Positions 921 through 14,066 are shown, numbered from the stretch's first letter. The stretch is 14,754 bases of DNA from Candidatus Omnitrophota bacterium (GCA_020354945.1 CP070655.1:439096-453849), one strand, 5' to 3'. Program-made: numbers and translations. The notes: generated by a model not told the origin, from the letters alone.

Positions 921-1289
921 ATGATACATCTTAGAAGTATGTTAGAGGTTGCGGATAATACCGGGGCGCGGATTGTGCGTTGTATCGGCGTTATACATCG
1001 TTCTGAAAAAAAATATGCAGATATTGGAGACGTTGTAAGCGGTAGCGTAAGAGAAGCAACTCCTGATTCTTTAATAAAGAAGGGTGAGAAGGTTAAAGCG
1101 GTAATAGTTCGAACCCGCAATGCCATAAGGAGAAGGGATGGTTCGACATTAAAATTTGATGGGAACGCCTGTGTCCTTATAGATGAAGCGGGTAATCCGC
1201 GTGGCAGTAGAATATTTGGTCCTGTTGCACGAGAACTAAGAGAGAAACGTTTTGCAAAGATAGTATCGCTTGCGCCGGAGGTTATATAG
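921..1289 (+). CDS. rplN: 50S ribosomal protein L14
   Basis: [31 protein letters not shown] and SLAPEVI. Confidence 0.99.
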
Positions 1290-1465
1290 TTTTGGCATTG
1301 TTCGCTCGGCTAAAATTTTTTACCGTCTTTTTGAACTTATGGCTCGCAACTTGCCGCGATAGGAGAGAGCTTGCCGCAATAGGTAATAGCCTGCCGCAGC
1401 TCGCCATAAGTCCTAAAAAGACATTTGCCAAAAAATTTCTAATGCCTCGCTTACAATACCAAAAC
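1289..1465. repeat. 177-nt imperfect long hairpin element with TCGCTC internal loops and a triplicated apical loop motif
   Basis: GTTTTGGCATTGT (1289-1301) pairs with ACAATACCAAAAC (1453-1465). AAAATTTTTT pairs with AAAAAATTT. GTCTTTTTGAACTTATGGC (1325-1343) pairs with GCCATAAGTCCTAAAAAGAC (1403-1422). Confidence 0.85.
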
Positions 1466-1485
1466 CAACATGAGAAGGCATTGGA

Positions 1486-1794
1486 ATGAAAATAAAAAGA
1501 AATGATCAAGTAAGGGTTGTTGGGGGTAAAGACAAGGGCAAAACCGGCAAGGTCTTACGGGTTTTTCCTAAAGAAAACAAGGTAATCGTAGAAGGGATAA
1601 ATTTTATCAAGCGTCATACTCGCAAAACTCAACAAGATCAACAAGGTGGTATAGTCAAAAAAGAGGCCACCATTGATGTTTCTAACTTAAAGGTTATTTG
1701 CCCGAGGTGCAACAAACCAACAAGAATTGGGATTACTGTTTTAAGCGATGATAAAAAATCACGTTATTGTAAAAAATGTGAAGAGATATTGTGA
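1486..1794 (+). CDS. rplX: 50S ribosomal protein L24
   Basis: KOW motif (VVGGKDKGKTGKV), VEGIN and GGIVKKEATID; C-terminal CPRC...CKKC. Confidence 0.98.
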   Translation: MKIKRNDQVRVVGGKDKGKTGKVLRVFPKENKVIVEGINFIKRHTRKTQQDQQGGIVKKEATIDVSNLKVICPRCNKPTRIGITVLSDDKKSRYCKKCEEIL

Positions 1795-1802
1795 GGAGTC
1801 TT

Positions 1803-1851
1803 TAAGTTATCAGTTAAGGCTGACGACTGATAACTGATGGCTGAGAACTGA
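1803..1851. repeat. 7-bp tandem/inverted repeat (TCAGTTA / TAACTGA family)
   Basis: TAAGTTA TCAGTTA, then GGCTGA CGACTGA TAACTGA TGGCTGA GAACTGA. Confidence 0.85.
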
Positions 1852-1854
1852 AAA

Positions 1855-2400
1855 ATGATTCCACGGTTATTAGAAAGATATAGAAAAGAGGCAGTACCTT
1901 CTTTAATGCAGAAATTCGGCTATAAGAATCGCTTTCAGGTGCCTCGCATAAAAAAGATTGTGGTAAATATGGGTATAGGGGCAGGAGCTCACGATCCAAA
2001 ATTAGTTGAAGAGGCCCAGAAAGACCTGACAATGATTACAGGGCAAAGGCCTGTTGTTACTAAAGCCAAAAGAGCAATTTCTAATTTTAAGATTAGAAAG
2101 GGCTCACACGTTGGCTGTATGGTTACTTTGAGAAGAGCCAGAATGTATGAATTTTTAGACAGGCTTATCAACGTGGCATTACCAAGAATTAGAGATTTTA
2201 AAGGATTGCCTGCTAATAGTTTTGACGGGCATGGCAATTATACATTTGGCCTTTCTGAACAACTAATATTTCCTGAGATTGAGCCGGATAAAGTTTATAA
2301 AACCCAGGGCATGGATATTACTGTAAACTTAACAAAGACTACCAAAGACGTAGCTTACCAACTTCTTAAACATCTTGGCATGCCATTGAGAGAGAGGTAG
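1855..2400 (+). CDS. rplE: 50S ribosomal protein L5
   Basis: KIVVNMG, ITGQRP, VTLR..RMYEFLDRL and PRIRDFKG. Confidence 0.99.
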   Translation: MIPRLLERYRKEAVPSLMQKFGYKNRFQVPRIKKIVVNMGIGAGAHDPKLVEEAQKDLTMITGQRPVVTKAKRAISNFKIRKGSHVGCMVTLRRARMYEFLDRLINVALPRIRDFKGLPANSFDGHGNYTFGLSEQLIFPEIEPDKVYKTQGMDITVNLTKTTKDVAYQLLKHLGMPLRER

Positions 2401-2408
2401 TTAAGGGG

Positions 2409-2457
2409 TAGTCATCAGTTATCAGTTTAATACCGAAAACTGACAACTGAATACTGA
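2409..2457. repeat. 7-bp tandem/inverted repeat (TCAGTTA / AACTGA family)
   Basis: TAGTCA TCAGTTA TCAGTTT, then ACCGA AAACTGA CAACTGA ATACTGA. Confidence 0.85.
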
Positions 2458-2464
2458 AAGATAT

Positions 2465-2650
2465 ATGGCAAAAAAAGCATTAATAGAAAAACAAAGAAAG
2501 AAACCTAAATTTAAGGTGAGAGCTTACAATCGTTGCCAAAGGTGCGGCAGGCCTAGAGGGTACATTAGGAAATTTAAATTGTGTAGAATTTGTTTTAGGG
2601 AATTAGCATCCAGAGGTGAAATACCAGGCGTTACAAAGGCAAGTTGGTAA
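2465..2650 (+). CDS. rpsN: 30S ribosomal protein S14, short zinc-binding (type Z) form
   Basis: 61 aa; [19 protein letters not shown] and IPGVTKASW. Confidence 0.99.
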
Positions 2651-2651
2651 G

Positions 2652-2731
2652 TCAGTTGTCGGTTATCGGTCTTCAGTATTCAGATAATAAAATTAAAAAC
2701 TGATAACTGATGACTGAAAACTGGGGACCGA
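2652..2731. repeat. Inverted pair of 7-bp tandem arrays, about 5 units per arm
   Basis: TCAGTTG TCGGTTA TCGGTCT TCAGTAT TCAG, an AT-rich loop, then CTGA TAACTGA TGACTGA AAACTGG GGACCGA. Confidence 0.87.
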
Positions 2732-2744
2732 TATAGGAGTTAAT

Positions 2745-3149
2745 ATGAGTACGACAGATCCGATAGCCAATTTCTTAACATTAATAAGAAATGCATTGAA
2801 AGCCAGAAAGGCAAATGTAGATTGTCCTTCGTCAAATATTAAAGAACAGATGTCCCAAATATTAAAAAGGGAAGGTTATATCAGAAATTTCAAAAAAATA
2901 GAAGATAACAAACAGGGAATATTAAGAATTTACCTAAAATATGGTAAAGATAAACAGAGAACCCCTGCGATAAGTAATCTTAAAAGGATCTCTTCGCCAA
3001 GCTTAAGGATTTATGAAAAATCAGACCAGGTCAAATCTGTATTGGGTGGGATAGGCATCGCCATTGTATCGACATCAAAGGGCATTAGAACAGACAAAGA
3101 ATGTAGAGATATTAAGATTGGAGGGGAGGTTCTTTGCCATATATGGTGA
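2745..3149 (+). CDS. rpsH: 30S ribosomal protein S8
   Basis: TDPIANFLTLIRNA, LKREGYI, GIAIVSTSKG and GGEVLC; AGGAG Shine-Dalgarno upstream. Confidence 0.99.
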   Translation: MSTTDPIANFLTLIRNALKARKANVDCPSSNIKEQMSQILKREGYIRNFKKIEDNKQGILRIYLKYGKDKQRTPAISNLKRISSPSLRIYEKSDQVKSVLGGIGIAIVSTSKGIRTDKECRDIKIGGEVLCHIW

Positions 3150-3152
3150 AAG

Positions 3153-3168
3153 AGGATTAAGGATTAAG
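3153..3168. repeat. AGGATTA heptamer, 2 copies
   Basis: AGGATTA AGGATTA AG; the same unit recurs at 8427-8456. Confidence 0.6.
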
Positions 3169-3176
3169 TAGAGAAA

Positions 3177-3713
3177 ATGTCCAGAATAGGAAAAAGACCT
3201 ATTAATATACCTGAAGGGGCGAAAGTTAGAAAACGAGACAATGTAGTTTACGTTGAAGGCCCAAAAGGCAAATTGGATTATTCCTTGATGCAGGGGATAG
3301 ATGTCGACATTAAAGATAATACAATTGCTGTAATTAGGTCTTCCGACGATAAACAGCACCGGGCATTACATGGACTAGCTAGAGCGCTGATTGCAAATAT
3401 GATAAAAGGAGTGATGGAAGGTTTTTCTAAGCAGTTAGAGATTATAGGGGTAGGTTTCAAAGCCCAGGTTTCCGGCAAAAAACTCACATTAAACCTTGGA
3501 TTTTCTCACACGATAGAATACAGGATACCGGATGGCATTGCCATAGAGACTCCAAAACCTACCCAAATTGTAGTTAAGGGCATTGATAAGCAGGCTGTCG
3601 GAGAAACGGCTGCGGAGATAAGGGATTTTTACAAACCTGAGCCATATAAGGGTAAAGGCATAAGATATGTCGGTGAATATGTGAGGAAGAAAGCAGGAAA
3701 GACGGTAGCATAA
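3177..3713 (+). CDS. rplF: 50S ribosomal protein L6
   Basis: MSRIGKRPI, GPKGKL, LGFSH and PEPYKGKGIRY. Confidence 0.99.
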   Translation: MSRIGKRPINIPEGAKVRKRDNVVYVEGPKGKLDYSLMQGIDVDIKDNTIAVIRSSDDKQHRALHGLARALIANMIKGVMEGFSKQLEIIGVGFKAQVSGKKLTLNLGFSHTIEYRIPDGIAIETPKPTQIVVKGIDKQAVGETAAEIRDFYKPEPYKGKGIRYVGEYVRKKAGKTVA

Positions 3714-3717
3714 AAGA

Positions 3718-3745
3718 TAAAAATTCAAAATTTAAAATTAAAAAT
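3718..3745. repeat. TNAAAAT heptamer, 4 copies
   Basis: TAAAAAT TCAAAAT TTAAAAT TAAAAAT. Confidence 0.6.
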
Positions 3746-3755
3746 TAGAGAGAAG

Positions 3756-4142
3756 ATGAAGATAAAAGACGCAAGACGAAGAAGATATTTAAGGGGAAAG
3801 AAGAAATTGCTTGGCACAAAAGAGAAACCTCGCCTTTGTATATATAGGAGCCTTAATAATATGACTGCTCAATTAATAGATGATGTCGAAGGCAAGACAT
3901 TGTTGTCTGTCTCTACGCTGGATAAAAGATTGAGAGATAATTTTTCCGCCAAAGGCGGATCTGCCTCTGGCAGAAAACGCAATGGTAATATTACCGCTTC
4001 TAGGGCATTGGGCGAGCTTTTAGCTAAAGAAGCTCAGAAGGCAAATATGAAACAGGTCAAATTTGATAAAAGTGGCTATCTTTATCACGGAAGAGTAAAA
4101 GAGTTTGCAGAAGCTTGCCGTAAAAACGGTTTGCGGTTTTAG
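3756..4142 (+). CDS. rplR: 50S ribosomal protein L18 with a 10-aa palindrome-derived insertion
   Basis: PRLCIYRS, AQLIDD..GKTL and FDKSGYLYHGRVK. Confidence 0.98.
   Translation: MKIKDARRRRYLRGKKKLLGTKEKPRLCIYRSLNNMTAQLIDDVEGKTLLSVSTLDKRLRDNFSAKGGSASGRKRNGNITASRALGELLAKEAQKANMKQVKFDKSGYLYHGRVKEFAEACRKNGLRF
3945..3974. repeat. 30-nt double mini-hairpin element, in frame within rplR
   Basis: TCCGCC-AAA-GGCGGA followed by TCTGCC-TCT-GGCAGA; encodes SAKGGSASGR. Confidence 0.85.
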
Positions 4143-4147
4143 TAGAA

Positions 4148-4193
4148 GGTTCAGACACTGGGAATTGCTAATGCGCATCATAGTGTCTGACCC
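4148..4193. repeat. REP-like hairpin of the GGGTCAGAC...GTCTGACCC family
   Basis: GGTTCAGACACTG pairs with TAGTGTCTGACCC; followed by ATAC, as is the copy at 8600-8646. Confidence 0.75.
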
Positions 4194-4216
4194 ATACGAA
4201 GTGTTTGGAGGCTAAC

Positions 4217-4786
4217 TTGGCAGAGAAGAAAGACCAAAAAGAATTTAAAAAAGACGAGGCAGACAAAAAATCAGCCAAAGAGCTAAAAGAGGCTATTCCT
4301 CGAGAATTAAAAAAGACTTACCAGGAAATACATCCTGAGGAAGAGACTGTTGAGAAGGTAATTTCCATTAAACGAACCACTAAGGTTACAAAGGGAGGCC
4401 GAAAATTAAATTTTGGTGCAGTGGTAGTAGTAGGAGATAAAAAGGGCAATGTTGGCTGTGGTTTCGGGAAAGCAAATGAGGTTCCCAATGCGATTAAAAA
4501 GGGTATCAATGACGCTAAAAAGAATATGATAAATGTCCCTGTCAAAGGAAGCACTATACCCCATGAGGTGATTGGCAGATATGGCGCAGCCGTTGTGCTT
4601 CTTAAACCAGCGGCAGAAGGTACAGGCGTCATCGCAGGTAACGTTATAAGGCCGGTTTGCGATGCAGCAGGCATAAAAGATATATTAACCAAGTGCCTAA
4701 AATCGCAGACGCCATCAAATGTTATAAAGGCAACTATGGACGGACTAAAAAAGTTGCGTTTTAAGAATGAGTTGTTAGAAGAATAG
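4217..4786 (+). CDS. rpsE: 30S ribosomal protein S5 with a charged N-terminal extension; TTG start
   Basis: [27 protein letters not shown] and GTGVIAG. GGAGG at 4207-4211 favours TTG 4217 over TTG 4205. Confidence 0.95.
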
Positions 4787-4839
4787 CACCGTTTTTGAAG
4801 CGTCCCTAACCTGGATGCTTTCAGAAACGGTGCATTCTT
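4779..4839. repeat. Long hairpin overlapping the rpsE stop, at the usual rpmD position
   Basis: AAGAAT-A-GCACCGTTTTTGAAGCGTCC pairs with GGATGCTTTCAGAAACGGTGC-ATTCTT around a 7-nt loop. Confidence 0.8.
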
Positions 4840-4854
4840 AGAGGAAGAGCTTGA

Positions 4855-5307
4855 ATGAAAATACAGGACATGAAATCCCCTAAAGGCGCCAGGAAACCCA
4901 AGAGAAGAAAAGGCAGAGGGATGGGTTCTGGCAGAGGTAAAACTGGTGGCAGAGGCAACAAAGGGCAAAAGTCAAGGTCAGGTTCAAAGCGGACCTTTGG
5001 CTTCGAGGGCGGCCAGATGCCATTAATGAGGAGGATCCCAAAAAGAGGATTTAGGCCAAGAGAAAAAAAAGAATATTCGATTATTAATTTAGAGAAATTA
5101 AATATTTTTAAAGAGGGGACTTATATAACCCCGTCTTTATTAAAAAATAAAAGATTAATAAAAACTATAAAAAAACCCATAAAGATTTTAGGCAAAGGAA
5201 AGCTTAAAAAAAAGTTGGCAGTGAACGCAGATAGTTTTTCAATGTCCGCAAAAGCTGCGATTGAAAAAACAGGGGGAAGCATTGAAAGGATTAAGAAAGT
5301 GCCGTAA
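4855..5307 (+). CDS. rplO: 50S ribosomal protein L15
   Basis: GRGMGSGRGKTGGRGNKGQKSRSG, FEGGQMPL and KILGKG. Confidence 0.99.
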   Translation: MKIQDMKSPKGARKPKRRKGRGMGSGRGKTGGRGNKGQKSRSGSKRTFGFEGGQMPLMRRIPKRGFRPREKKEYSIINLEKLNIFKEGTYITPSLLKNKRLIKTIKKPIKILGKGKLKKKLAVNADSFSMSAKAAIEKTGGSIERIKKVP

Positions 5308-5323
5308 ACGGTACTAAAAAAAG

Positions 5324-6673
5324 ATGTTAGCAGCTTTAGCTAATATATTAAAAGTACCTGATCTAAGAAAGAAAATATTTCTTACATTTGGGTTGGTAGC
5401 TGTTTATAGAATAGGCTGTTTTGTCCCTACTCCAGGTATAGACGGGGCAGCATTAGCGCAGTTCTTTGATAATATAGCCAGGACAACCGGCGGCACACTC
5501 TTTGGCATTATGAATCTGTTCAGTGGGGGAGCTATGCGGAATATGACCATATTTGCTTTAGGTATTATGCCGTATATATCCAGCTCCATCATTATGCAAC
5601 TGCTCACTACAGTTATACCGCAGCTTGAGCGATTAGCCAAAGAAGGCGGGGAAGAGGGCAGAAGAAAGATTACTCAATATACCCGATATGGCACGGTAAT
5701 TCTGGCTGTAATACAATCTACTTTTATTAGTCTATGGTTGGAAAACCCGGCCCATTTTCAAGGTGTCCAGATAGTTCAATTTCCGGGCTGGGGCTTTAGA
5801 TTATTAACAGTTTTAACTTTAGCCAGCGGCACTGCATTTATAATGTGGTTAGGCGAACAAATAACCGAATATGGTATTGGTAATGGTATGTCGCTTATTA
5901 TCACGGCTAGTATAATATCACGATTGCCTACAGCGACAAATCAACTATTTTTGTTGGTATCGCCTTTTGCGCCAGCCAGAAGGCAGATAGATGTGCTTAC
6001 CTTGATAGCAATGGTAATTATTATGGTTGGGGTTATTGTCGCAGTAGTTGTAATTACCCAGGGACAGCGCAGAATACCGGTGCAATATGCCAAGAGAATA
6101 ATTGGCAGAAAGGTTTACGGCGGCCAAAGCACATATATTCCTTTCAGGGTAAATCATGCCGGGGTTATACCGATTATATTCGCGCAATCTTTATTACTTT
6201 TTCCGGCAACAATTGCTGGTTTTTTTCCTAATCCCACATTCCAGAAGATGGCTAATGCGCTGATGAAAGGAAACATTCTTTATTTTACAATGTATTCTGG
6301 TTTGATAGTATTTTTCTGTTATTTTTATACCGCAATTACATTTAATCCTGTAGACGTGGCTGATAATATGAAAAAATACGGAGGATTTATCCCTGGCGTA
6401 AGGCCGGGTAAGCCTACGGCAAGTTATTTTGATAGAATATTGACAAGAGTTACATTGCCTGGAGCTATATTTTTGGCTTTGATAGCTATATTCCCAAGAA
6501 TAATATCAAGATGGCTAAACATACCCTTTTTAATAGCCAGTTTCTTCGGCGGAACAGCCTTACTAATTACAGTTGGGGTTATGTTAGATACAATGAAACA
6601 GATTGAATCCCAGCTTTTAATGAGACATTATGAGGGATTTTTGAGGAAAGGTAAATTGAGGTCGAGGAGATGA
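5324..6673 (+). CDS. secY: Preprotein translocase subunit SecY
   Basis: FALGIMPYI, WLGEQITEYGIGNG, GVIPIIFA and GGFIPGVRPG; multiple hydrophobic segments. Confidence 0.99.
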   Translation: MLAALANILKVPDLRKKIFLTFGLVAVYRIGCFVPTPGIDGAALAQFFDNIARTTGGTLFGIMNLFSGGAMRNMTIFALGIMPYISSSIIMQLLTTVIPQLERLAKEGGEEGRRKITQYTRYGTVILAVIQSTFISLWLENPAHFQGVQIVQFPGWGFRLLTVLTLASGTAFIMWLGEQITEYGIGNGMSLIITASIISRLPTATNQLFLLVSPFAPARRQIDVLTLIAMVIIMVGVIVAVVVITQGQRRIPVQYAKRIIGRKVYGGQSTYIPFRVNHAGVIPIIFAQSLLLFPATIAGFFPNPTFQKMANALMKGNILYFTMYSGLIVFFCYFYTAITFNPVDVADNMKKYGGFIPGVRPGKPTASYFDRILTRVTLPGAIFLALIAIFPRIISRWLNIPFLIASFFGGTALLITVGVMLDTMKQIESQLLMRHYEGFLRKGKLRSRR

Positions 6674-6676
6674 ATC

Positions 6677-6711
6677 CGTATGTCGTATGTCGTATATCGT
6701 ATGTCGTATTT
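6677..6711. repeat. CGTATGT heptamer, 5 copies
   Basis: CGTATGT CGTATGT CGTATAT CGTATGT CGTATTT. Confidence 0.9.
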
Positions 6712-6734
6712 GAAAAGAGGATTAAACGCTAAGT

Positions 6735-7391
6735 ATGCGATTAATATTGTTAGGGCCTCCAGGGGCTGGTAAGGGAACGCAGGCGAAGGTTCTTTCTCAA
6801 AAATTAAACCTAGTTCATCTTTCGACAGGAGATATATTTAGAGAGTCTGCTAAAAGGCCAGATGAAATTGGACAAAGATTAACCGGATATATGCAACGAG
6901 GACAATTAGTGCCGGATGAGATAGTAAATCAAATTGTGATAGAGAAGCTAAAGGATAAACGTATTCAGAACAGGTTTATACTCGATGGCTACCCGAGGAC
7001 AAAAACTCAAGCTACTTCCCTCGATGAATTTTTAGCAATTAATAAAATTCCGTTAGATATGGTTGTTTATATGCAGACATCAGAACAGGTCATAATAGAT
7101 CGCTTAACAGGTCGCCGGATTTGCGGAAAATGCGGCGCTAATTACCATATAAAGAATATACTGCCTAAAAAAGATGGGATATGCGATATATGCGGAGGGA
7201 GGCTTATCCAGCGCGACGACGATAAGAAAGAAACTGTTTTAAAAAGAATAAAAGTGTATAATCAGCAAACAGCAGGATTAATAGATTATTATAAAAATAA
7301 GGGGTTTTTGCATACTGTTTCAGGAGATTTAGAAGTAGATAGGTTATACAAGATTCTTCACGAGCTCTTTAACGAAGAGGGACTGATATAA
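6735..7391 (+). CDS. adk: Adenylate kinase, with a four-cysteine zinc-type LID
   Basis: GPPGAGKGTQA, HLSTGDIFR, ILDGYPRT, CGKC...CDIC and QRDDD. Confidence 0.99.
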   Translation: MRLILLGPPGAGKGTQAKVLSQKLNLVHLSTGDIFRESAKRPDEIGQRLTGYMQRGQLVPDEIVNQIVIEKLKDKRIQNRFILDGYPRTKTQATSLDEFLAINKIPLDMVVYMQTSEQVIIDRLTGRRICGKCGANYHIKNILPKKDGICDICGGRLIQRDDDKKETVLKRIKVYNQQTAGLIDYYKNKGFLHTVSGDLEVDRLYKILHELFNEEGLI

Positions 7392-7415
7392 AATAAATCC
7401 AAAAATCATTTTTTT

Positions 7416-8162
7416 ATGATACATTATAAATCAAAAGATGAAATAGAAAAGATGCATAAGGCGGGGATTATTGTAGCGAAAACATTAGCCATGCTAACTG
7501 ACATGATAATGCCGGGAATGACTACCGGACAACTGGACGAAAGAGCAGCTGAACTGATCGGTAAACTAAAAGGCAGGTGCGCCTTTAATGGTTATAGGGG
7601 ATTCCCTAAAAATATATGCACTTCAATAAATGAAGAAATAGTACATGGTATACCAGGCACACGAAGATTAAAAGAAGCCGACATAATAAGCATTGATACC
7701 GGAGTTGAACTGGATGGGTTTTATGGAGACGCCGCAATAACTGTAGGTGTTGGAGAAATTTCTCCTGAGGCTAAAAGATTACTGGATGTGACCAAAGGAG
7801 CCCTCTATAAAGGTATTGCAATGGCAACTGTTAATAACAGACTTTCTGATATATCGTGTGCTGTACAAGAGGAAGCAGAATTAAATGCTTTTTCCGTTGT
7901 AAGAGAATTTGTTGGCCATGGCATAGGTTCAGACTTGCATGAGGATCCACAAATACCGAATTTTGGACAACCACATATGGGCCCTGCGCTAAAACCCGGG
8001 ATGGTGTTAGCAATAGAGCCGATGATTAATATAGGAACTTATAAAGTGGATATACTTAAAGATGGCTGGACAGCTGTTACGGCTGATAGAAAACTTTCAG
8101 CGCATTTTGAGCACACTGTTGCTATTACAGAGGATGGGCCCAGGATATTGACGGAGTTATGA
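7416..8162 (+). CDS. map: Methionine aminopeptidase, type I
   Basis: CTSINEEIVHGIP, DGFYGDAA, GHGIG..LHEDP, AIEPM and SAHFEHT. Confidence 0.99.
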   Translation: MIHYKSKDEIEKMHKAGIIVAKTLAMLTDMIMPGMTTGQLDERAAELIGKLKGRCAFNGYRGFPKNICTSINEEIVHGIPGTRRLKEADIISIDTGVELDGFYGDAAITVGVGEISPEAKRLLDVTKGALYKGIAMATVNNRLSDISCAVQEEAELNAFSVVREFVGHGIGSDLHEDPQIPNFGQPHMGPALKPGMVLAIEPMINIGTYKVDILKDGWTAVTADRKLSAHFEHTVAITEDGPRILTEL

Positions 8163-8163
8163 A

Positions 8164-8195
8164 GCAGTTTTCAGTTTTCAGTTGTTGATAGCTGA
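8164..8195. repeat. 7-bp repeat of the TCAGTT family with a short opposing arm
   Basis: GCAGTTT TCAGTTT TCAGTTG, then TTGA TAGCTGA. Confidence 0.7.
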
Positions 8196-8206
8196 CGATT
8201 TTTAGA

Positions 8207-8422
8207 ATGAAAGAAGAGGCAATTCAAGCAGAAGGTACGATTATAGAAGCATTGCCAAACGCAATGTTTAGAGTAGAATTGGATAATGGACACAGGGTCC
8301 TGGCGCATGTTTCAGGTAAGATGAGAATGTATTTTATAAGAATAGTACCGGGGGACAGAGTAAAATTAGAACTTTCACCGTATGACCTTACCAAGGGGCG
8401 GATTATTTATAGGGAAAAGTAA
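8207..8422 (+). CDS. infA: Translation initiation factor IF-1
   Basis: [20 protein letters not shown] and [10 protein letters not shown]. Confidence 0.99.
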
Positions 8423-8426
8423 TTCT

Positions 8427-8456
8427 AGGATTAAGGATTAAGAATTAAGGATTAAG
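8427..8456. repeat. AGGATTA heptamer, 4 copies
   Basis: AGGATTA AGGATTA AGAATTA AGGATTA AG. Confidence 0.88.
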
Positions 8457-8479
8457 TTTCAGAAGTAAAGCAGAAGAAG

Positions 8480-8593
8480 ATGAAGGTTAAAGCATCAGTT
8501 AAAAAAATTTGTTCTTCATGTAAGATTATAAAACGCAAAGGTGTAGTTATGGTTATATGCAGGAATCCGAAGCATAAGCAGAGACAGGGATGA
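8480..8593 (+). CDS. rpmJ: 50S ribosomal protein L36, zinc-binding form; missing from the ORF track
   Basis: Manual translation gives [37 protein letters not shown] (37 aa). Confidence 0.98.
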
Positions 8594-8599
8594 TTGGGA

Positions 8600-8646
8600 G
8601 GGGTCAGGCCCTTGGAAAGAAATAGCCATTCCCAGGGTCTGACCCC
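8600..8646. repeat. REP-like hairpin of the GGGTCAGAC...GTCTGACCC family
   Basis: GGGGTCAGGCCCTTGGAA pairs with TTCCCAGGGTCTGACCCC; followed by ATAC. Confidence 0.8.
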
Positions 8647-8671
8647 ATACCTCCACAACAAGGAGTGATAA

Positions 8672-9070
8672 ATGCCGAGAGTTTGCGGTGTTGATATACC
8701 AAAAGGGAAAAGAGTGGAAATTGCACTTACCTATATTCACGGGATTGGCAGAACTGTTTCAAATAAAATATTAAAAGCTATTGGCATAAATCCCGATGTG
8801 AGGGCTAAGGACCTTACCGGAGAAGATGTAGCAAAAATTTCTACTTTCATTACAAAAAATTATAAGATAGAAGGCGATTTAAGAAGAGAGGTAACAGGGA
8901 ACGTAAAGAGGCTGATAGACATAGGAACTTATAGAGGATTGCGCCATAGAAAGGGTTTGCCGGTAAGAGGGCAACGAACAAATACAAATGCGCGCACCAG
9001 GAAAGGCCCGAGAAAGACAGTTGGCGTTGCAAAAAGAGAAAAAGAGCAGAAAATTAGAAAGGAAGGGTAA
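8672..9070 (+). CDS. rpsM: 30S ribosomal protein S13
   Basis: [17 protein letters not shown] and [26 protein letters not shown]. Confidence 0.99.
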
Positions 9071-9078
9071 TTATAGAA

Positions 9079-9516
9079 ATGGTAAAAGCTGAAGAGAAAA
9101 CCCCGCCTGCAGACCGGCAGGCAAAACGAGAACCAGAACCTGAAAAGAAAAAGTCGAAACAAAAAGTTTTAATCCATGATGGTATAGTATATATCTTAGC
9201 GACCTTTAACAATACAATTATTACTGTAACAGATAAAAATGGCAATACAATTTGTTGGTGTTCCAGCGGCAACATCGGTTTTAAAGGTTCGAAAAAATCT
9301 ACACCGTTCGCTGCTCAAAGAGCTGCAAGTGCAGCTGCTGAAAAAGCAAAAGGGTTAGGACTAAAAAAGGTAGACATTTGCGTAAAGGGACCGGGAGCAG
9401 GCAGAGAATCAGCGATACGGGCAATGCAGGCGGCTGGATTACAGATAAGTACTATTAAAGATATTACCCCTATACCACATAATGGATGTAGAGCCCCGAA
9501 GCGAAGGAGAGTATAA
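9079..9516 (+). CDS. rpsK: 30S ribosomal protein S11 with an extended N-terminus
   Basis: [39 protein letters not shown] and TPIPHNGCR. Confidence 0.99.
9102..9123. repeat. GCCTGC..GCAGGC palindrome, in frame in the rpsK N-terminus
   Basis: CCCGCCTGC-AGACCG-GCAGGCA resembles the perfect palindrome at 10295-10314; read as PPADRQA. Confidence 0.6.
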
Positions 9517-9533
9517 TTTGGCAATGTTACATG

Positions 9534-9552
9534 AGGTTACCTTAGGTAACCT
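9534..9552. repeat. 19-bp palindrome upstream of rpsD
   Basis: AGGTTACCT-T-AGGTAACCT. Confidence 0.7.
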
Positions 9553-9569
9553 TTGAATACGAGGTTAAA

Positions 9570-10196
9570 ATGGCAAGATATATAGGAGCATCGTGCAGGT
9601 TGTGCAGAAAGGAAGGCGTAAAACTTTTTCTTAAAGGTAATCGTTGCGTAACTGAGAAGTGTGCCTTAGATAGGCGCAGTTATAAACCCGGCTTACATGG
9701 CCAACAAAGAAGAAAGCTTTCCGATTTTGGTTTACAGCTTAGAGAAAAGCAGAAAGCCAAGACAATATACGGAGTGCTAGAGAAACAATTCAGAAATTAT
9801 TTTAAAAAAGCAGAGAGGTCACGGGATGTCACCGGTGAGGCCCTTCTGCAATTTTTAGAACGGCGGTTAGACAATGCAGTCTTTAGGTGCTGTTTTGCTC
9901 CTTCCAGGCCTCAGGCAAGGCAAATGGTTGGTCACGGTTTTATTATGGTTAATGAAAAAAAGGTAAACCGGCCATCTTACTTAGTTAGCAAAGGAGATAC
10001 TATAAAGGTAAATGCCGAGAAGGACCAATTTAAGATTGTATCCGAAAGAATGCAAGACTTGAAAGAAAGAGGCATACCCGGTTGGATAAATGTAGATGAA
10101 AAACTTTTAACGGCTAAAATTGATAGGCCCCCTAAAAAAGAAGATGTTGGTTTTCCGATTCAGGTTCAGCTTATTGTAGAATTATATTCGAAATAG
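9570..10196 (+). CDS. rpsD: 30S ribosomal protein S4, cysteine-containing form
   Basis: MARYIG..CRLCRKEG.KLFLKG.RC, QLREKQK, LERRLDN and LIVELYSK. Confidence 0.99.
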   Translation: MARYIGASCRLCRKEGVKLFLKGNRCVTEKCALDRRSYKPGLHGQQRRKLSDFGLQLREKQKAKTIYGVLEKQFRNYFKKAERSRDVTGEALLQFLERRLDNAVFRCCFAPSRPQARQMVGHGFIMVNEKKVNRPSYLVSKGDTIKVNAEKDQFKIVSERMQDLKERGIPGWINVDEKLLTAKIDRPPKKEDVGFPIQVQLIVELYSK

Positions 10197-10198
10197 AG

Positions 10199-10352
10199 GT
10201 CCCCCGCTAGTAAAAGATGCTCGCACTTGCTCGTATCTTAGCAATGCTGGGGACAAAATTTATTAATAAATAGTCCCTCCAGCGCTCCTATTCGCCTGCC
10301 TGCCGGCAGGCAGGTTGCACTGTTTGGGACAATTTTTGCTTTGCAAAAATTG
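10199..10352. repeat. Composite hairpin cluster between rpsD and rpoA
   Basis: GTCCCC..AAGATGC-TCGCACTTGCTC-GTATCTT..GGGGAC; TTTATTAATAAA; GTCCC..CCTGCCTGCCGGCAGGCAGG..GGGAC; CAATTTTTGC-TTT-GCAAAAATTG. Confidence 0.8.
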
Positions 10353-10365
10353 GAGGTAAAAAGAG

Positions 10366-11340
10366 ATGGGAATAGCGTGGAAAGAATTTGAAATGCCCAA
10401 AACTCTCGAATGCGATGAATCTACCCTGACAGATACATACGGTAAATTTATAGCAGAACCGCTTGAAAGAGGTTATGGAATAACTCTGGGAAATTCTTTA
10501 CGGAGGGCACTTATATCTTCAGTTGAAGGTAGCGCAGTAACTAATGTAAGATTCGAAGGGGTTCAGCATGAATTTTCTGCTATAGACGGAGTGATTGAGG
10601 ATGTGCCTGAAATTATACTTAATATTAAGAAAGTTGTGATAAGAAGCCATGCCCTAAAACCAAAACCATTATATATAAAAGTTCAACGAAAAGGCAGGGT
10701 TACAGCTAAAGATATAATTGCTGATGAAACAGTGGATATCATAAATAAGGATTTACATATAGCTACATTGACAAAAAATATTAAATTTAATGTAGAAATG
10801 GGTTTAGGCAAAGGCCGTGGATATGTTCCGGCGGAAAAAAATAAAAAAGAAGACGCCCCAATAGGAGTCATTGCTATAGATTCTATTTTTAGCCCCGTTT
10901 CTAAAGTAAATTTCCACGTTGAAGATACCAGGGTAGGCCAGATTATAGATTATGATAAACTTATATTAGAAATATGCACTAACGGAGCGGTGAGCCCTAA
11001 AGAAGCTTTGCTCTATGCATCCAATGTCCTGCAAAGACATTTTGATATTTTTGTCAATTTTGGCAAACTTCCGGAAGACTTAGAGATTACTGAGGAGCCG
11101 GAGGAAGATGAAGAGCTTCAGGCAAAACTTAAAATCCCGGTTACCGAACTTGAACTCTCAGTAAGAAGCGGTAATTGCTTAGAAAAGGCCAAGATAAAGA
11201 CTATAGGCGATTTAGTAGGCAAGACCGAAAGTGAAATGCTGAAATATAGAAACTTTGGCAAAAAGTCATTAAATGAAATTGTTGGCATTTTGAATAATAT
11301 GGGCCTTTCACTTGGAATGAAGATCAAAAAGAAAAAATGA
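10366..11340 (+). CDS. rpoA: DNA-directed RNA polymerase alpha subunit
   Basis: EPLERGYGITLGNSLRR, HEFS, GRGYVPA, ELELSVRS and NFGKKSLNEI; GGAGG Shine-Dalgarno. Confidence 0.99.
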   Translation: MGIAWKEFEMPKTLECDESTLTDTYGKFIAEPLERGYGITLGNSLRRALISSVEGSAVTNVRFEGVQHEFSAIDGVIEDVPEIILNIKKVVIRSHALKPKPLYIKVQRKGRVTAKDIIADETVDIINKDLHIATLTKNIKFNVEMGLGKGRGYVPAEKNKKEDAPIGVIAIDSIFSPVSKVNFHVEDTRVGQIIDYDKLILEICTNGAVSPKEALLYASNVLQRHFDIFVNFGKLPEDLEITEEPEEDEELQAKLKIPVTELELSVRSGNCLEKAKIKTIGDLVGKTESEMLKYRNFGKKSLNEIVGILNNMGLSLGMKIKKKK

Positions 11341-11960
11341 GACACGGCAAATTAAATAAACGTTTCGGGAGAAATAAATCAGCTCGCAAGGAATTAATAC
11401 GGTCCTTAGCGAGAAACGCTCTTATATATTCGAGGATCAAGACGACATTACCTAAAGCCAAGGAGGCGTCCAGGCTTTTAGATAAGCTAATATCACTGGG
11501 CAAGAAAGAGACACTACAAGCAAGGAGAGCGGCTTTTGATATGTTACAGGATAGGTCTTTAGTGTCACGCTTAGTAAAAGATATAGCTCCTTTATTCAAA
11601 GACAGAAATGGTGGATATACTAGAATTATTCAGTTAAACAGTCGCCATGGCGATGGCACCCAAATGGCCATACTTGAGTTGGTAGAAAAACTAAAAGAGG
11701 AGCCAAAGCCGAAGAAGAAGGTAAAGGCCAAAGCCAAAGAAGCCCCGAAGAAAGTTGTAGAGGCGCCCAGGGAGGAACCAAAGCCAATTGAAGAAATAAA
11801 AGAGAAGCCGGCACCTAAGAAGTTAAAAGCTAAGCCTAAAGCGAAGCCTCCAAAAGCTAAGGAAGAACCACAAGAAGCAGAAAAAGTAAAACCTAAACCA
11901 GAGAAGAAAAAAGAGTGGTTTAATCGAATAAAAGGAATATTCAAAAGAAAAAAAGATTAG
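11337..11960 (+). CDS. rplQ: 50S ribosomal protein L17 with a ~90-aa K/E/P/A-rich C-terminal extension
   Basis: MRHG, RIKTTLPKAKE, RNGGYTRII and MAILELVE; ATGA overlap with rpoA. Confidence 0.98.
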   Translation: MRHGKLNKRFGRNKSARKELIRSLARNALIYSRIKTTLPKAKEASRLLDKLISLGKKETLQARRAAFDMLQDRSLVSRLVKDIAPLFKDRNGGYTRIIQLNSRHGDGTQMAILELVEKLKEEPKPKKKVKAKAKEAPKKVVEAPREEPKPIEEIKEKPAPKKLKAKPKAKPPKAKEEPQEAEKVKPKPEKKKEWFNRIKGIFKRKKD

Positions 11961-11985
11961 CCCTTTCGTGTAAGGGGTCGTATTG

Positions 11986-12029
11986 AAGGAGGTGGGGTCC
12001 TGATGTAAAAGGGTCAAACCTCCTTTTTT
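11986..12029 (+). terminator. Candidate intrinsic terminator after rplQ (imperfect stem plus T tract)
   Basis: AAGGAGGT (11986-11993) pairs with ACCTCCTT (12018-12025), with inner GGTCCT/AGGGTC pairing, then TTTT. It lies at the end of the alpha operon. Confidence 0.5.
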
Positions 12030-12074
12030 GTTGGGGGGGCAGTTTTGGGGCCAGACCCTGACCCTGCATTAGAA

Positions 12075-13328
12075 ATGAGCAAGACAGTAGCGGAAAAGAT
12101 ATTAAGCGAACATTCGCGCAGGGACTTAAAGGCGGGCGATTATGCCTTATCCAAGGTGGATTTTTGTTTTGGTCAGGATGGGACCAGCGCTCTTATCATA
12201 GATGCTCTGCATAAACTGGGAGTAAAAGAGTTAACAGCAAGAAAAAGATTTTGTATGGTCATAGACCACAGTGCCCCTTCGCCAAATATAGGAATTTCAG
12301 CAGTGCATGCCAAAATGCGAAAATTTGCTGCTCGAAATAAGCTGCGCTTATATGATATAGGCTGTGGTGTATGCCACCAGGTAATATTAGAATCCGGAAA
12401 TGTACTTCCAGGCGATTTAGTAGTAGGGGCAGATTCTCACACCTGTACTTACGGCGCATTAGGGGCATTGGCGACGGGTTTCGGTTCTACAGATTTAGCT
12501 ATAACATTAGCCAGCGGCAAAAACTGGTTTAAAGTTCCAGAGACTATCAAGATAATAATAGATGGCAAATTGCCAAAGGGTGTTTATTCAAAGGATATAA
12601 TTTTGCATATTATAGGGGATTTAGGTGCTGATGGCTGCACCTATAACTCAATTGAATTTACAGGCAATACAGTGGCAGCTCTAACTGTTGATGCGCGCTT
12701 CACTATTTCTAATATGGCTGTTGAGATGGGAGCCAAATGCGGCATTATGTATCCTGATAAAAAGGTGATTAGCTGGCTTAAGAAAAGAGGTAAAAAGATT
12801 AAAAGAAAAGTCTATCCGGATAAAGATGCCGATTATGTTAGCGTAAAAAGATATGATGCCAGCAAACTTATTCCAAAGATATCTAAACCCCATACAGTCG
12901 ATAACGTATCCAATGTTAAAGCGGTTTCCGGAAAACCGGTAAATTTAGCCTATATTGGAACGTGCACTAATGGAAGTTTGGAAGACCTGGTGATAGCTTC
13001 TAAAATACTTAAGGACAAAACAATAGCTGATAATGTGAGATTGATTATAGCGCCTGCATCAAGACAGATTTATCTGGAGGCTATGAGAAAGGGGATTATC
13101 CGGACATTCATTGAAGCCGGAGGCAATGTAGTTACCCCGGGATGCGGGCCCTGCGTAGGCACTCACGATGGTGTTCCTTCCGATGGCGAGGTTGTAATAT
13201 CTACAGCGAATAGAAATTTTAAAGGCAGAATGGGCAACCCGGATGCTTTTATCTATTTAGCTTCACCGGCAACAGTAGCTGCATCGGCGTTAACAGGAAA
13301 GATAACCGATCCAAGGAGATATGCATAA
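12075..13328 (+). CDS. leuC: 3-isopropylmalate dehydratase / homoaconitase family large subunit (short HacA-like type)
   Basis: KTVAEKILS, IDH, GVCHQV, GADSHTCTYGA, IGTCTNG, PGCGPCVG, STANRNFKGRMG and YLASP. ATG 12075 preferred over TTG 12045. Substrate uncertain. Confidence 0.88.
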   Translation: MSKTVAEKILSEHSRRDLKAGDYALSKVDFCFGQDGTSALIIDALHKLGVKELTARKRFCMVIDHSAPSPNIGISAVHAKMRKFAARNKLRLYDIGCGVCHQVILESGNVLPGDLVVGADSHTCTYGALGALATGFGSTDLAITLASGKNWFKVPETIKIIIDGKLPKGVYSKDIILHIIGDLGADGCTYNSIEFTGNTVAALTVDARFTISNMAVEMGAKCGIMYPDKKVISWLKKRGKKIKRKVYPDKDADYVSVKRYDASKLIPKISKPHTVDNVSNVKAVSGKPVNLAYIGTCTNGSLEDLVIASKILKDKTIADNVRLIIAPASRQIYLEAMRKGIIRTFIEAGGNVVTPGCGPCVGTHDGVPSDGEVVISTANRNFKGRMGNPDAFIYLASPATVAASALTGKITDPRRYA

Positions 13329-13478
13329 TTTTTACATACTTGCCTCCGCTTGTCGCTCGCAAAAAGAATTCTTCGCCAGAGGCGAAGGGCACTTTTTGCT
13401 CGCTGTGGCAAAAATTGCTCGCTTCTTGCCGTTGTTCGCGCAATTTTTGACAGTCACTCCGACAAGCATGCAAAAATT
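13327..13478. repeat. ~150-nt three-way-junction hairpin element with TCGCTC linkers
   Basis: Outer arms AATTTTTACATACTTG / CAAGCATGCAAAAATT and GCTTGTCG / CGACAAGC. Branch 1 is GCAAAAAG..CTTCGCC-AGA-GGCGAAG..CTTTTTGC. Branch 2 is CAAAAATTGC..GCAATTTTTG. Confidence 0.85.
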
Positions 13479-13508: not shown

Positions 13509-14066
13509 ATGGAACTTAAAGGAAAAGCGCATAAATTTGGGGATGATGTAAATACAGACTATATTATATCCGGAAGATATAAATTTAAGATTCAAGACCC
13601 GCATGAACTGGCAAAACACTTAATGGAAGATTTAAAATCTGATTTTTATAAAAAAATTTCCGCTGGAGGCGAATCCGCCTCTGCCAAAGGCAGATGCGCC
13701 CCAGGCGCAAAACGTGGAAAAAGAGGAGATTTTATAGTTGCCGGTAGGAATTTTGGATGCGGTTCGTCCCGTGAACAGGCCCCCTTAGCCATAAAATACG
13801 CAGGAGTTTGTGCTGTTTTAGCAAAATCTTTTGCCAGGATTTTCTTTAGAAACAGCATCAATATAGGCCTTATGCTTTTAGAATGTGATACAGATGCCAT
13901 TTCAGATGGCGATTATCTCCTCGTCAACATAAAAAGGGGGCTTGTATATAACAAAACAAAAAATATGAAGATTCAAATCAGGCCTTTACCAAATTTTATA
14001 CTAAAGATTTTAAAGGACGGCGGCCTGGTCAATCATTTTAAAAGACATAAGGGGTTTAAGTTTTAA
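13509..14066 (+). CDS. leuD: 3-isopropylmalate dehydratase / homoaconitase family small subunit with a 20-aa insertion
   Basis: GKAHKFGDDVNTDYII, VAGRNFGCGSSREQAP, AKSFARIFFRN and GGL. The conserved domain begins at ATG 13509. Confidence 0.88.
   Translation: MELKGKAHKFGDDVNTDYIISGRYKFKIQDPHELAKHLMEDLKSDFYKKISAGGESASAKGRCAPGAKRGKRGDFIVAGRNFGCGSSREQAPLAIKYAGVCAVLAKSFARIFFRNSINIGLMLLECDTDAISDGDYLLVNIKRGLVYNKTKNMKIQIRPLPNFILKILKDGGLVNHFKRHKGFKF
13659..13718. repeat. 60-nt in-frame, apparently nested, mini-hairpin insertion in leuD
   Basis: TCCGCTGGAGGCGAA TCCGCC [TCTGCC-AAA-GGCAGA TGCGCC-CCA-GGCGCA] AAA CGTGGA; encodes SAGGESASAKGRCAPGAKRG. Confidence 0.8.

Follow-up and report, generated by a model that had tools for sequence, protein, structure and literature searches.

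Repetitive extragenic palindromic sequences (REPs) are presented in the parts of PMC3733652 that deal with them as palindromes of 20-40 bp which carry GTAG or CGTC tags and lie mostly downstream of genes, and the genes of the REP-associated tyrosine transposases (RAYTs) as flanked by REPs or by long inverted repeats. In the corresponding parts of PMC3337134 the RAYT genes are single-copy and typically flanked by REPINs, a REPIN being two inverted REPs. The elements described here were found in a stretch of 14,754 nt ("the window"; coordinates are counted from its first letter, and the elements, hairpins and tags given below lie on its + strand) from a Candidatus Omnitrophota bacterium (GCA_020354945.1 CP070655.1:439096-453849, which is C1:439096-453849 of the source assembly, G000). 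The window contains the spc/alpha ribosomal-protein operon and then LeuC/LeuD-family genes. Three of its spacers, rplN-rplX, rpsD-rpoA and leuC-leuD, hold elements that we call e1, e2 and e3, and we judge it about 75% probable that these are small interspersed repeats from three related families, non-coding and hairpin-forming, which are similar to miniature inverted-repeat transposable elements (MITEs), REPs and BOX elements and belong to one Omnitrophota lineage. The families are new, the kind of element is known, and they do not represent a new kind of gene. Full-text searches for literature on interspersed repeats in Omnitrophota or Omnitrophica gave no relevant paper.

Like REPs, bacterial interspersed mosaic elements (BIMEs) and the REPIN-RAYT systems, these repeats are extragenic and palindromic, and the foot of the hairpin carries a short conserved motif; like REPs and BIMEs they lie mostly downstream of genes, between co-directional or convergent open reading frames (ORFs), and form dimers and mosaics (PMC3733652, PMC3337134, in the parts that treat these repeats). 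The tags are different, since GTAG and CGTC are unpaired and stand at one end of a REP, whereas here (T)CGCTC/GCTCGC stands on both arms and forms a tandem mismatch. The units are also larger, 57-175 nt with nested or three-way helices as compared to 20-40 bp, and instead of two inverted REPs there is a nested hairpin in e1, a three-way junction in e3 and a 57-nt hairpin, e2a, in e2. BOX, RUP and SPRITE elements are, in the parts of PMC3049150 devoted to them, modular, shorter than 200 bp, located in transcribed intergenic DNA and folded into stable stem-loops; the elements here share this, including module swaps, so that the interchangeable stem-loop modules in transcribed spacers that mark the BOX and BIME types are present. 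BOX itself has no sequence relation to them, and it has A, B and C boxes, terminal inverted repeats with target duplications and a proposed insertion sequence (IS) partner, none of which is shown here. A further likeness is to the enterobacterial repetitive intergenic consensus (ERIC) and Correia elements, imperfect palindromes of 100-150 nt that are co-transcribed with operons and have orientation-dependent effects on the mRNA (PMC3049150, same parts).

The original prediction, made from the window alone, saw in these spacers hairpins with common TCGCTC junctions and a common apical loop, and the motifs are indeed present: TCGCTC (1302-1307) and TCGCTT (1447-1452) in e1, TCGCTC (13353-13358), TCGCT (13400-13404) and TCACTC (13454-13459) in e3, and a shared loop motif, CTCGC-N1-2-CTTGC, at 1343, 10220 and 13418, each time on the + strand. 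This loop motif occurs three times in the window as compared to 0.04 expected (0 of 200 shuffles reach three), and seven of its eight matches in the whole genome are inside copies of the e1, e2 or e3 types. The three spacers also fold better than their shuffles, 200 dinucleotide shuffles being used for each. For e1 the minimum free energy (MFE) is -62.7 kcal/mol (z = -3.84, 0/200 shuffles as good) and for e3 -53.5 kcal/mol (z = -2.53, 2/200), and the rpsD-rpoA spacer has z = -2.97, with 1/200 shuffles as good.

Each element is a member of a sequence family in which the copies are 75-94% alike, and further copies were found both in G000 (1.14 Mb, 38.9% GC, a single scaffold with 12,900 N, 89% complete) and in its relatives, of which G001 is the congener. 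BLAST of the spacers against G000 gave many partial and full copies, clustering of the intergenic regions gave three large groups of 40, 39 and 23 regions, and the indels between copies are not multiples of three, as in non-coding DNA. In a self-BLAST of G000, positions 1294-1463 were scored as repeated; with nhmmer, e1 has six full copies in G000, besides solo right ends, and 23 matches in G001. The corresponding figures for e3 are 11 full and two partial copies in G000 and 19, 10 and 5 matches in the three same-family genomes (3/3), with matches in 0/12 genomes of the same order and, elsewhere in the class, only two 21-nt matches in one genome. A pattern scan in which each species was represented by one genome gave 37 loci, 20 of them in Omnitrophota or Omnitrophica records and 14 in two metagenome-assembled genomes (MAGs) under the title 'uncultured Planctomycetia'; judged from identical scores, at least one of the two is G001 itself. 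Copies of the e3 type are also present in a closed Omnitrophota chromosome of 1.43 Mb (CP070780.1). Three matches outside Omnitrophota (Hyella, Rhodocyclaceae, Sneathiellales) had no further likeness to G000 and were rejected; matches on viral contigs were also dismissed as chance, the three loci being one sequence found thrice with only 54 nt around the pattern alike. An Rfam scan of the whole window, with E up to 1, gave only a chance mir-101 match (2657-2726), and the elements match no Rfam family.

The elements are gained and lost at individual sites, and the same spacer holds different elements in different strains. The rplN-rplX spacer is 197 nt long in G000, 6 nt (ACCCGG) in G001, where the flanks are 95-97% identical to those of G000, 3 nt in G002 and about nil in G003. 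With the e1 insertion come an extra 20 nt (1466-1485), missing from the empty sites of G001 and G002, which contain a Shine-Dalgarno (SD)-like GAGAAGG (1472-1478) ahead of the rplX ATG; this run may serve in ribosome binding. A third allele was seen in a marine sediment run, X6, where a contig joins 1291 to 1486 via 39 other letters, the insert being AGGATTA heptads in place of 1292-1485. AGGATTA heptad runs are also found in the window spacers 3153-3168, 9 nt before a start codon at 3177, and 8427-8456, and they resemble stacked Shine-Dalgarno-like AAGGA units. The leuC-leuD spacer, 181 nt in G000, is 2 nt in G004 and 6 nt in G005. It consists of an unrelated heptad repeat (62 nt) in G003 and of 509 nt of other elements in G001, including the right end of e3 and a reversed e1 copy. 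Three G001 copies face empty sites in G000, and four face spacers that are filled otherwise, with a recognisable other repeat at one of them (L081).

It was suggested in the original prediction that the spacers might hold a structured RNA, and strong covarying structure at sites in ribosomal-protein and leucine operons is what gene-specific cis-regulatory RNAs (ribosomal-protein leaders or riboswitch-like elements) or independent small RNA genes would give. The empty sites in relatives, with flanks 92-97% identical, largely refute this, and the same families stand beside many unrelated genes. Scans of the three spacers gave no promoter-like sites; for terminator-like sites, e1 and e2 and the sequence behind them were negative, and e3 has two weak terminator-like stems on its first hairpin, one per strand. 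Together with the missing Rfam match, this makes such RNAs a very improbable explanation; a stand-alone RNA gene is unlikely for copies that are multi-copy, insertion-polymorphic and inside operons.

In e1 (1289-1465) an outer stem, 1289-1301/1453-1465, encloses a long nested hairpin. The two junction tags, which had been described as unpaired, do face each other, but they are partly paired: the GC at 1304-1305 of the left tag pairs with the GC at 1449-1450 of the right tag (family consensus CTCGCT), the TC opposes the TC of the right tag, and the result is G-C and C-G pairs around a 2x2 U.C/C.U mismatch. The apical tag (1342-1354) consists of GCTCGC and CTTGC, with the loop motif CTCGCAACTTGC at 1343-1354 and a partner GCTCGC at 1399-1404. 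Between them lies a copy-specific tandem duplication of about 20 nt x 2.5 (1350-1399), at which the sister copies G0_172 and G0_184 are 19 nt shorter. The outer inverted arms vary between subfamilies. Among 19 aligned copies, the left tag arm is GCTCG or TCGAC in 11 and GCGAG, the perfect complement, in five; the latter would be a two-base flip as made by template switching between palindrome arms.

The e3 element (13329-13477) has sharp ends and terminal inverted repeats of about 17-20 nt (AGATTTTGYRTRCTTGCC / GGCAAGYAYRCAAAATCT, at 13329-13345 and 13460-13477), inside which a three-way junction carries two hairpins. The first (13355-13403, the hairpin itself at 13359-13399) is closed by GCTCGC at 13355-13360 against GCTCGC at 13398-13403; TC opposes TC in 19 of the 21 aligned copies, and the apex is C(UUCG)G, an RNA-stable tetraloop, in 15/21. 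The second (13403-13453) has the apical motif CTCGCTTCTTGC at 13418-13429 and is followed by the third junction tag, TCACTC (13454-13459), of which the family consensus is TCGCTC. The bases before the copies are often TAG or AAG and are not fixed. At the G001 locus (L018) the 3' end of leuC enters a different repeat and the C-terminus of LeuC is altered; this repeat is a short ATTGC/GCAAT stem around two direct GAGCGAA boxes, that is, the tag on the other strand. Within leuD, at 13659-13717, we also observed an in-frame insertion of about 60 nt with three GC-rich mini-palindromes, encoding the peptide SAGGESASAKGRCAPGAKR, which is not in G001, G003 or G004. A similar mini-palindrome pair is found at 3945-3979, inside the ORF 3756-4142. 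The arrangement recalls the in-frame insertion of palindromic elements into genes.

Around constant tags, the helices are maintained through compensatory changes, as was seen when changed cells and a covariation score were compared with 500 shuffles. Among 21 copies of e3 from four genomes, 96.4% of the cells at 47 pairs are paired, 16 of these pairs are changed on both sides (64 cells), and 0/500 shuffles reach the counts or the score; when the partners are slid, pairing falls to 43-54%. The 19 copies of e1, from two genomes, have 41 pairs with 96.8% of the cells paired, 18 of them changed on both sides (74 cells), again with 0/500 shuffles reaching the counts or the score. In e2a (11 copies, three genomes), 10 of 24 pairs are changed on both sides, and compensatory changes are thus present in all three elements. 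The proposal of one family relationship marked by short conserved motifs is supported by this, as the helices vary and covary around the motifs. The stems had also been called divergent, but they do not diverge freely, each element having family copies that are 75-94% alike.

The rpsD-rpoA element had been taken for one unit of about 170 nt. The hairpin with the apical motif is real, but the element is not one unit: the spacer of G001 is 77 nt and matches only the second half of the G000 spacer, which, judged from the sequences, makes e2 of the window a composite of three units. The first is the 57-nt hairpin e2a (10199-10255), right after the stop codon and not in the G001 spacer, with an outer stem GTCCC/GGGAC, an apex C-UC-GC-ACUU-GC-UC-G and the loop motif at 10220-10230. 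The second is an older e2a-like unit (10273-10356), made up of GTCCC...GGGAC (10273-10330), a small A/T hairpin (10330-10352) and GGAGG (10352-10356), which stands 9 nt ahead of the rpoA ATG at 10366. The third is a 20-nt palindrome, CCTGCCTGCCGGCAGGCAGG (10295-10314), inserted in the apex of the second unit and likewise missing from G001, so that hairpin and palindrome are additions of G000 at this site. The perfect palindrome has more than 20 matching sites in G000; it is a separate small repeat that recurs in the apices of e2a-type hairpins, and was also found in the apex of the copies at G000 683119-683186 and at G003 locus L213. In eight other G000 copies the 3' module of the second unit is likewise followed by an SD-like run and a start codon.

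R1, a covariance model built on the 57-nt hairpin (78.2 bits for 10199-10255), has 8, 4, 34 and 3 matches in G000, G001, G002 and G003, weak single matches in six of 12 same-order genomes and, in a class sample of 121 genomes with G000 included, matches in six other genomes of three other families (E 1e-6 to 1e-3). In these other families the hairpin is low-copy. In the distant matches the stem sequences differ, but the outer GTCC/GGAC stem and the UC/UC loop are retained, often together with the ACUU apex. When 39 matches from at least 14 genomes were aligned, the 15 pairs were 96.0% paired, with 11 changed on both sides and 0/500 shuffles as good, in an alignment that was fitted to the R1 model and hence leans towards it; the 2-bp helix beyond the UC/UC loop covaries (GC 22, CG 8, AU 6).

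Downstream of e2a the arrangement is regular and the genes are not. In 11 of the 24 R1 matches examined, an ORF starts 30-34 nt past the hairpin, after the small A/T hairpin and an SD-like run, usually GGAGG, so that the e2 type ends in a small hairpin and a Shine-Dalgarno sequence serving the next gene. Nine downstream ORFs were compared with NCBIfam; seven are named, unrelated housekeeping genes (leuB, rplS, dapA, argG, ribH and others), and two had no NCBIfam match. Of the 24 matches, two precede a co-directional tRNA gene and five lie directly against the 3' end of an opposite-strand tRNA gene. The loci in other families where e2a and the small hairpin adjoin a tRNA gene are L200, L204, L218, L189 and L190 (3' end, opposite strand) and L203 and L187 (upstream, same strand), and in the opposite-strand cases the GGAG after the small hairpin corresponds to the tRNA 3' end in reverse complement. 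Since the downstream genes are unrelated, a gene-specific regulator is disfavoured; the sequences favour e2a as a generic intergenic cassette that may amplify, compare the 34 copies in G002.

The sequence common to the three elements is the tag. When GCTCGC meets GCTCGC, the outer G-C and C-G pair and the central TC opposes TC, which gives a tandem U.C/C.U mismatch, and on the complementary strand a tandem G.A pair. This mismatched helix occurs at four places, the outer junction and the apex of e1, hairpin 1 of e3 and the apex of e2a, and the tag marks junctions, apices and module boundaries. Four G000 copies of e3 have a different hairpin 1 between the same tags, a whole e1 is nested inside an e3 shell at G001 locus L098, and at one orthologous site (G0_172 and G1_L097) the outer stem is kept while the inner e1 modules differ. 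TCGCTC/GAGCGA is the most enriched hexamer, of those seen at least 25 times, in the short non-coding repeats of G000, where it is found 43 times in 17.4 kb, about 11-fold more densely than in the other intergenic DNA or in coding DNA; many of the 43 come from related copies and are not independent, and TCGCTC occurs in at least six different sequence contexts. Its non-coding enrichment is 2.8x in G000, 0.9x in G004 (380 kb) and 0.8x in G022 (300 kb). These order-level and class-level relatives rule out TCGCTC as a class-wide signal, and the abundant tag is therefore a trait of the family of G000, the e2a hairpin itself being older. Two other tests of the tags were discarded: a pentamer test for direct repeats flanking hairpins was uninformative (AGCGA 14/679, with A/T-rich words higher), and pairs of CTCGC..CTCG are only modestly non-coding (14/27).

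The copies lie in the sense of their neighbours, mostly just behind a stop codon. The genes flanking the three spacers were confirmed by NCBIfam, LeuC/LeuD as a family pair: rplN (921-1289), rplX (1486-1794, ATG at 1486), rpsD (9570-10196), rpoA (10366-11340) and the large (LeuC family, 12045-13328) and small (LeuD family, from 13509) subunits of a 3-isopropylmalate/homoaconitate dehydratase. The stop codons end at 1289, 10196 and 13328 and the elements begin 1-3 nt later, as had been noticed from the window; the e1 core begins 4-16 nt past the upstream stop in 6/6 G000 copies. For e3 the sense orientation was found in 10/11 copies in G000 and 13/14 in G001-G003, and for e1 in 6/6 and in 13/14 copies in relatives, that is, 42/45 for the two together (one-sided binomial about 4e-10 by our own arithmetic). 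To our knowledge the sense bias of ERIC and Correia elements is weaker than this.

A bias of 42/45, just behind stop codons inside operons, is also what could be expected if the elements function in the transcript, as RNA hairpins that punctuate operons by setting boundaries of mRNA decay or processing, with e2 as a structured leader that has its own SD sequence and the UC/UC loop as a site for an RNA-binding protein or RNase. The near-fixed distance from e2a to the start codon, the e2a hairpin and UC/UC loop kept with covariation at low copy number in other families, and the C(UUCG)G apex of e3 all fit with this, and the analogous ERIC, Correia, BIME and BOX elements affect mRNA cleavage, stability or attenuation, according to the parts of PMC3049150 on these effects. 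The congeners lack the element at the same site, therefore no copy is essential; the genes downstream are unrelated, the five R1 matches convergent to a tRNA 3' end would place an antisense version in the tRNA transcript, and the antisense folds are the more stable. None of the 22 sequencing runs listed is an RNA run. A role in the transcript is thus possible, and we hold it only tentatively.

Several points weigh against the repeat interpretation or parts of it. Some of the 45 copies are orthologous across genomes and not independent, and the gene calls behind orientation and position came from a crude longest-ORF script and not from a gene finder. Orientation relative to genes and to replication are inseparable, because the GC skew of the scaffold just follows the gene strand: the block flips in G000 track it nearly perfectly (e.g. 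19:0 or 0:20 genes per 20 kb), the single 'contig' being a scaffold whose pieces are oriented arbitrarily and have a strong gene-strand bias. MFE is lower for the antisense strand in 19/19 copies of e1, 18/21 of e3 and 7/11 of e2a, therefore folding energy cannot single out the mRNA strand; the tandem G.A on the complementary strand is probably the explanation. An assignment of the sense strand from conserved G.U pairs in e3 was dropped for the same reason. Compensatory-looking changes in DNA palindromes may arise unselected, by template switching between the arms, and the paired TC-to-GA flips in the e1 tag look like this. Empty sites in relatives are found, as the original prediction suggested one might look for, but in seven comparisons of filled and empty sites, with flanks only about 90-95% identical, there was no consistent target duplication of fixed length, only one possible 4-bp TCAC repeat, the other comparisons showing none or a replaced spacer. 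A search of G000 for a longer element with these ends was negative. Finally, no mobilising enzyme could be tied to the elements.

Some of these points bear on whether the elements are classical MITEs, deletion derivatives of a DDE-transposase IS that recognises double-stranded terminal inverted repeats, in which the hairpin would be a by-product. The elements are small, non-coding and multi-copy like MITEs, and in size and copy number they fit; e3 has the terminal inverted repeats and sharp ends, and the possible TCAC duplication is at a G001 insertion. The target duplication is not consistent, however, and no DDE_Tnp_1, DDE_3 or rve gene and no repeat longer than 884 nt was found in G000. A parent IS with the same termini is missing from G000, other genomes not having been searched for one, and a permissive pattern for the e3 termini gave 297 matches in G000, with adjoining element sequence only in the known short copies. 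Moreover, the terminal repeats covary base by base between copies, and a conserved internal mismatch and strong strand bias are unexpected for double-strand cut-and-paste, so that classical MITEs are an improbable explanation. Correia elements duplicate TA and carry promoters and integration host factor sites; for the elements here neither a consistent duplication nor a promoter-like site was seen. The empty sites compared have no common target motif.

A single-strand substrate, which the original prediction proposed for DNA or RNA, fits with the tag, because the motif becomes a tandem mismatch only when one strand self-folds. The analogy to integron attC sites that accompanied the proposal does not hold as regards context. 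In attC, too, a folded single-strand structure is conserved over sequence, and unpaired or mismatched bases could mark the strand, but attC sites are arrayed after cassette ORFs by an integrase gene, and the copies here are dispersed over the scaffold between housekeeping genes (intI was not searched for). At the ends of IS200/IS605 elements, a Y1 HUH enzyme recognises imperfect hairpins on one strand, and insertion is strand-biased; these hairpins are subterminal, there are no terminal inverted repeats, and insertion is 3' of a fixed tetra- or pentanucleotide. In contrast, e3 has terminal inverted repeats, no fixed target was seen, and no TnpB gene was found in G000.

A candidate enzyme for the HUH idea is encoded in G000. 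Exactly one Y1_Tnp gene is present, at C1:1123640-1124266 (209 aa; 67.9 bits when the genome was searched, 66.6 bits when proteins were scanned), whose translation has an HUH-like HIH and a downstream YxxRY stretch and whose best NCBIfam model is NF047646, REP-associated tyrosine transposase (1.6e-19 as compared to 1e-4 for IS200), and no match to RVT_1, the TnpB zinc ribbon, DDE_3, DDE_Tnp_1 or rve was found in the 89%-complete genome. A single-copy RAYT gene is described for REPIN-RAYT systems in the relevant parts of PMC3337134, and the single RAYT-like gene of G000 may be its counterpart. The elements could thus be REP- or REPIN-like and moved by this enzyme, which would bind a folded single strand, reading the mismatched GCTCGC helix as the E. 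coli RAYT reads GTAG and a hairpin, with cut-and-paste on the lagging-strand template. A conserved imperfection in the palindrome and the strand bias are expected of such a single-strand mechanism, and if transcription and replication are co-directional, the lagging-strand template is the sense strand. RAYT-like genes were found in 36 of 41 class genomes, whether or not the repeat families are present; being near-universal, they make co-occurrence with the repeats uninformative. Some class genomes have up to 12 RAYT-like matches, several of which have internal stops.

The remaining facts about this gene weigh against such a role. Its RAYT-like score, 70.2 bits, is under the 80-bit NCBIfam cut-off. 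No repeats, tags or family copies lie beside it in G000, at G001 locus L068 or at G003 locus L076, although such flanks are typical of RAYTs in the parts of PMC3337134 and PMC3733652 that describe them. It has no close ortholog in the congener (best 51% identity), though the elements there are 85-90% alike, nor a conserved position: the G001 contig ends at the site, and G003 has ilvD without the gene. With the 57-175 nt multi-helix units set against the tagged 20-40-bp REPs of PMC3733652 (in its parts on REPs), and with other transposases possibly missing from an 89%-complete assembly, we consider movement by this enzyme unlikely.

Returning to the interpretation as interspersed repeats, we infer a mode of spread, and any RNA function, as follows. 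The elements would spread as DNA via a folded single strand, and the mismatched GCTCGC helix would be the mark read by a trans-acting protein, for which the RAYT-like Y1 (HUH) transposase is the only, and a weak, candidate found. An inserted element would be co-transcribed with the operon and survive only where its orientation and position leave the flanking genes translatable, and it may then work as an RNA hairpin between cistrons, with a processing or stabilising effect, and in the case of e2 as a portable leader for ribosome binding. It is conceivable, as a rather speculative extension, that the GCTCGC x GCTCGC helix is the recognition site of a dedicated class-wide factor, either the RAYT-like HUH enzyme on folded single-stranded DNA or an RNA-processing protein, and that the elements form a third 'tagged palindrome' superfamily beside the GTAG and CGTC REPs. 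If so, its members would nest at the tag, and some would by now be portable leader cassettes carrying the ribosome-binding site of the next gene.

Other repeats were observed in the window. Heptad-run hairpins with ACTGAnA / TCAGTTn arms lie in the ribosomal-operon spacers at 845-925, 1815-1860, 2410-2460, 2652-2740 and 8161-8185; they are a third repeat type, whose genome-wide cluster comprises 23 intergenic regions. A perfect 19-nt inverted pair (2410-2428/2697-2715) brackets a whole 61-aa ORF at 2465-2650. A hairpin family of 47-50 nt (GGGGTCAGACCCTGG...CCAGGGTCTGACCCC), represented in the window at 8596-8650 upstream of the ORF 8672-9070, has 11 matches in G000.

Three traits of the elements are unusual: a tag that forms a mismatch, an almost invariant sense orientation and, in one type, a built-in ribosome-binding leader. 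Omnitrophota are uncultivated bacteria with small genomes, and in G000 the elements make up about one sixth of the non-coding DNA (18.3 kb of about 113 kb, by an ORF mask). The repeats break MAG assemblies, copies being found at N gaps, and the families account for annotation errors, among them the spurious ORF 1292-1489 and a leuD that is called too long, from 13350. Between close strains the repeats alter the spacing and the ribosome-binding context of core operons. The mismatch tag, the covarying helices, the near-absolute sense orientation and the ribosome-binding module together give a testable handle on how such repeats are recognised and how they are tolerated in essential operons.

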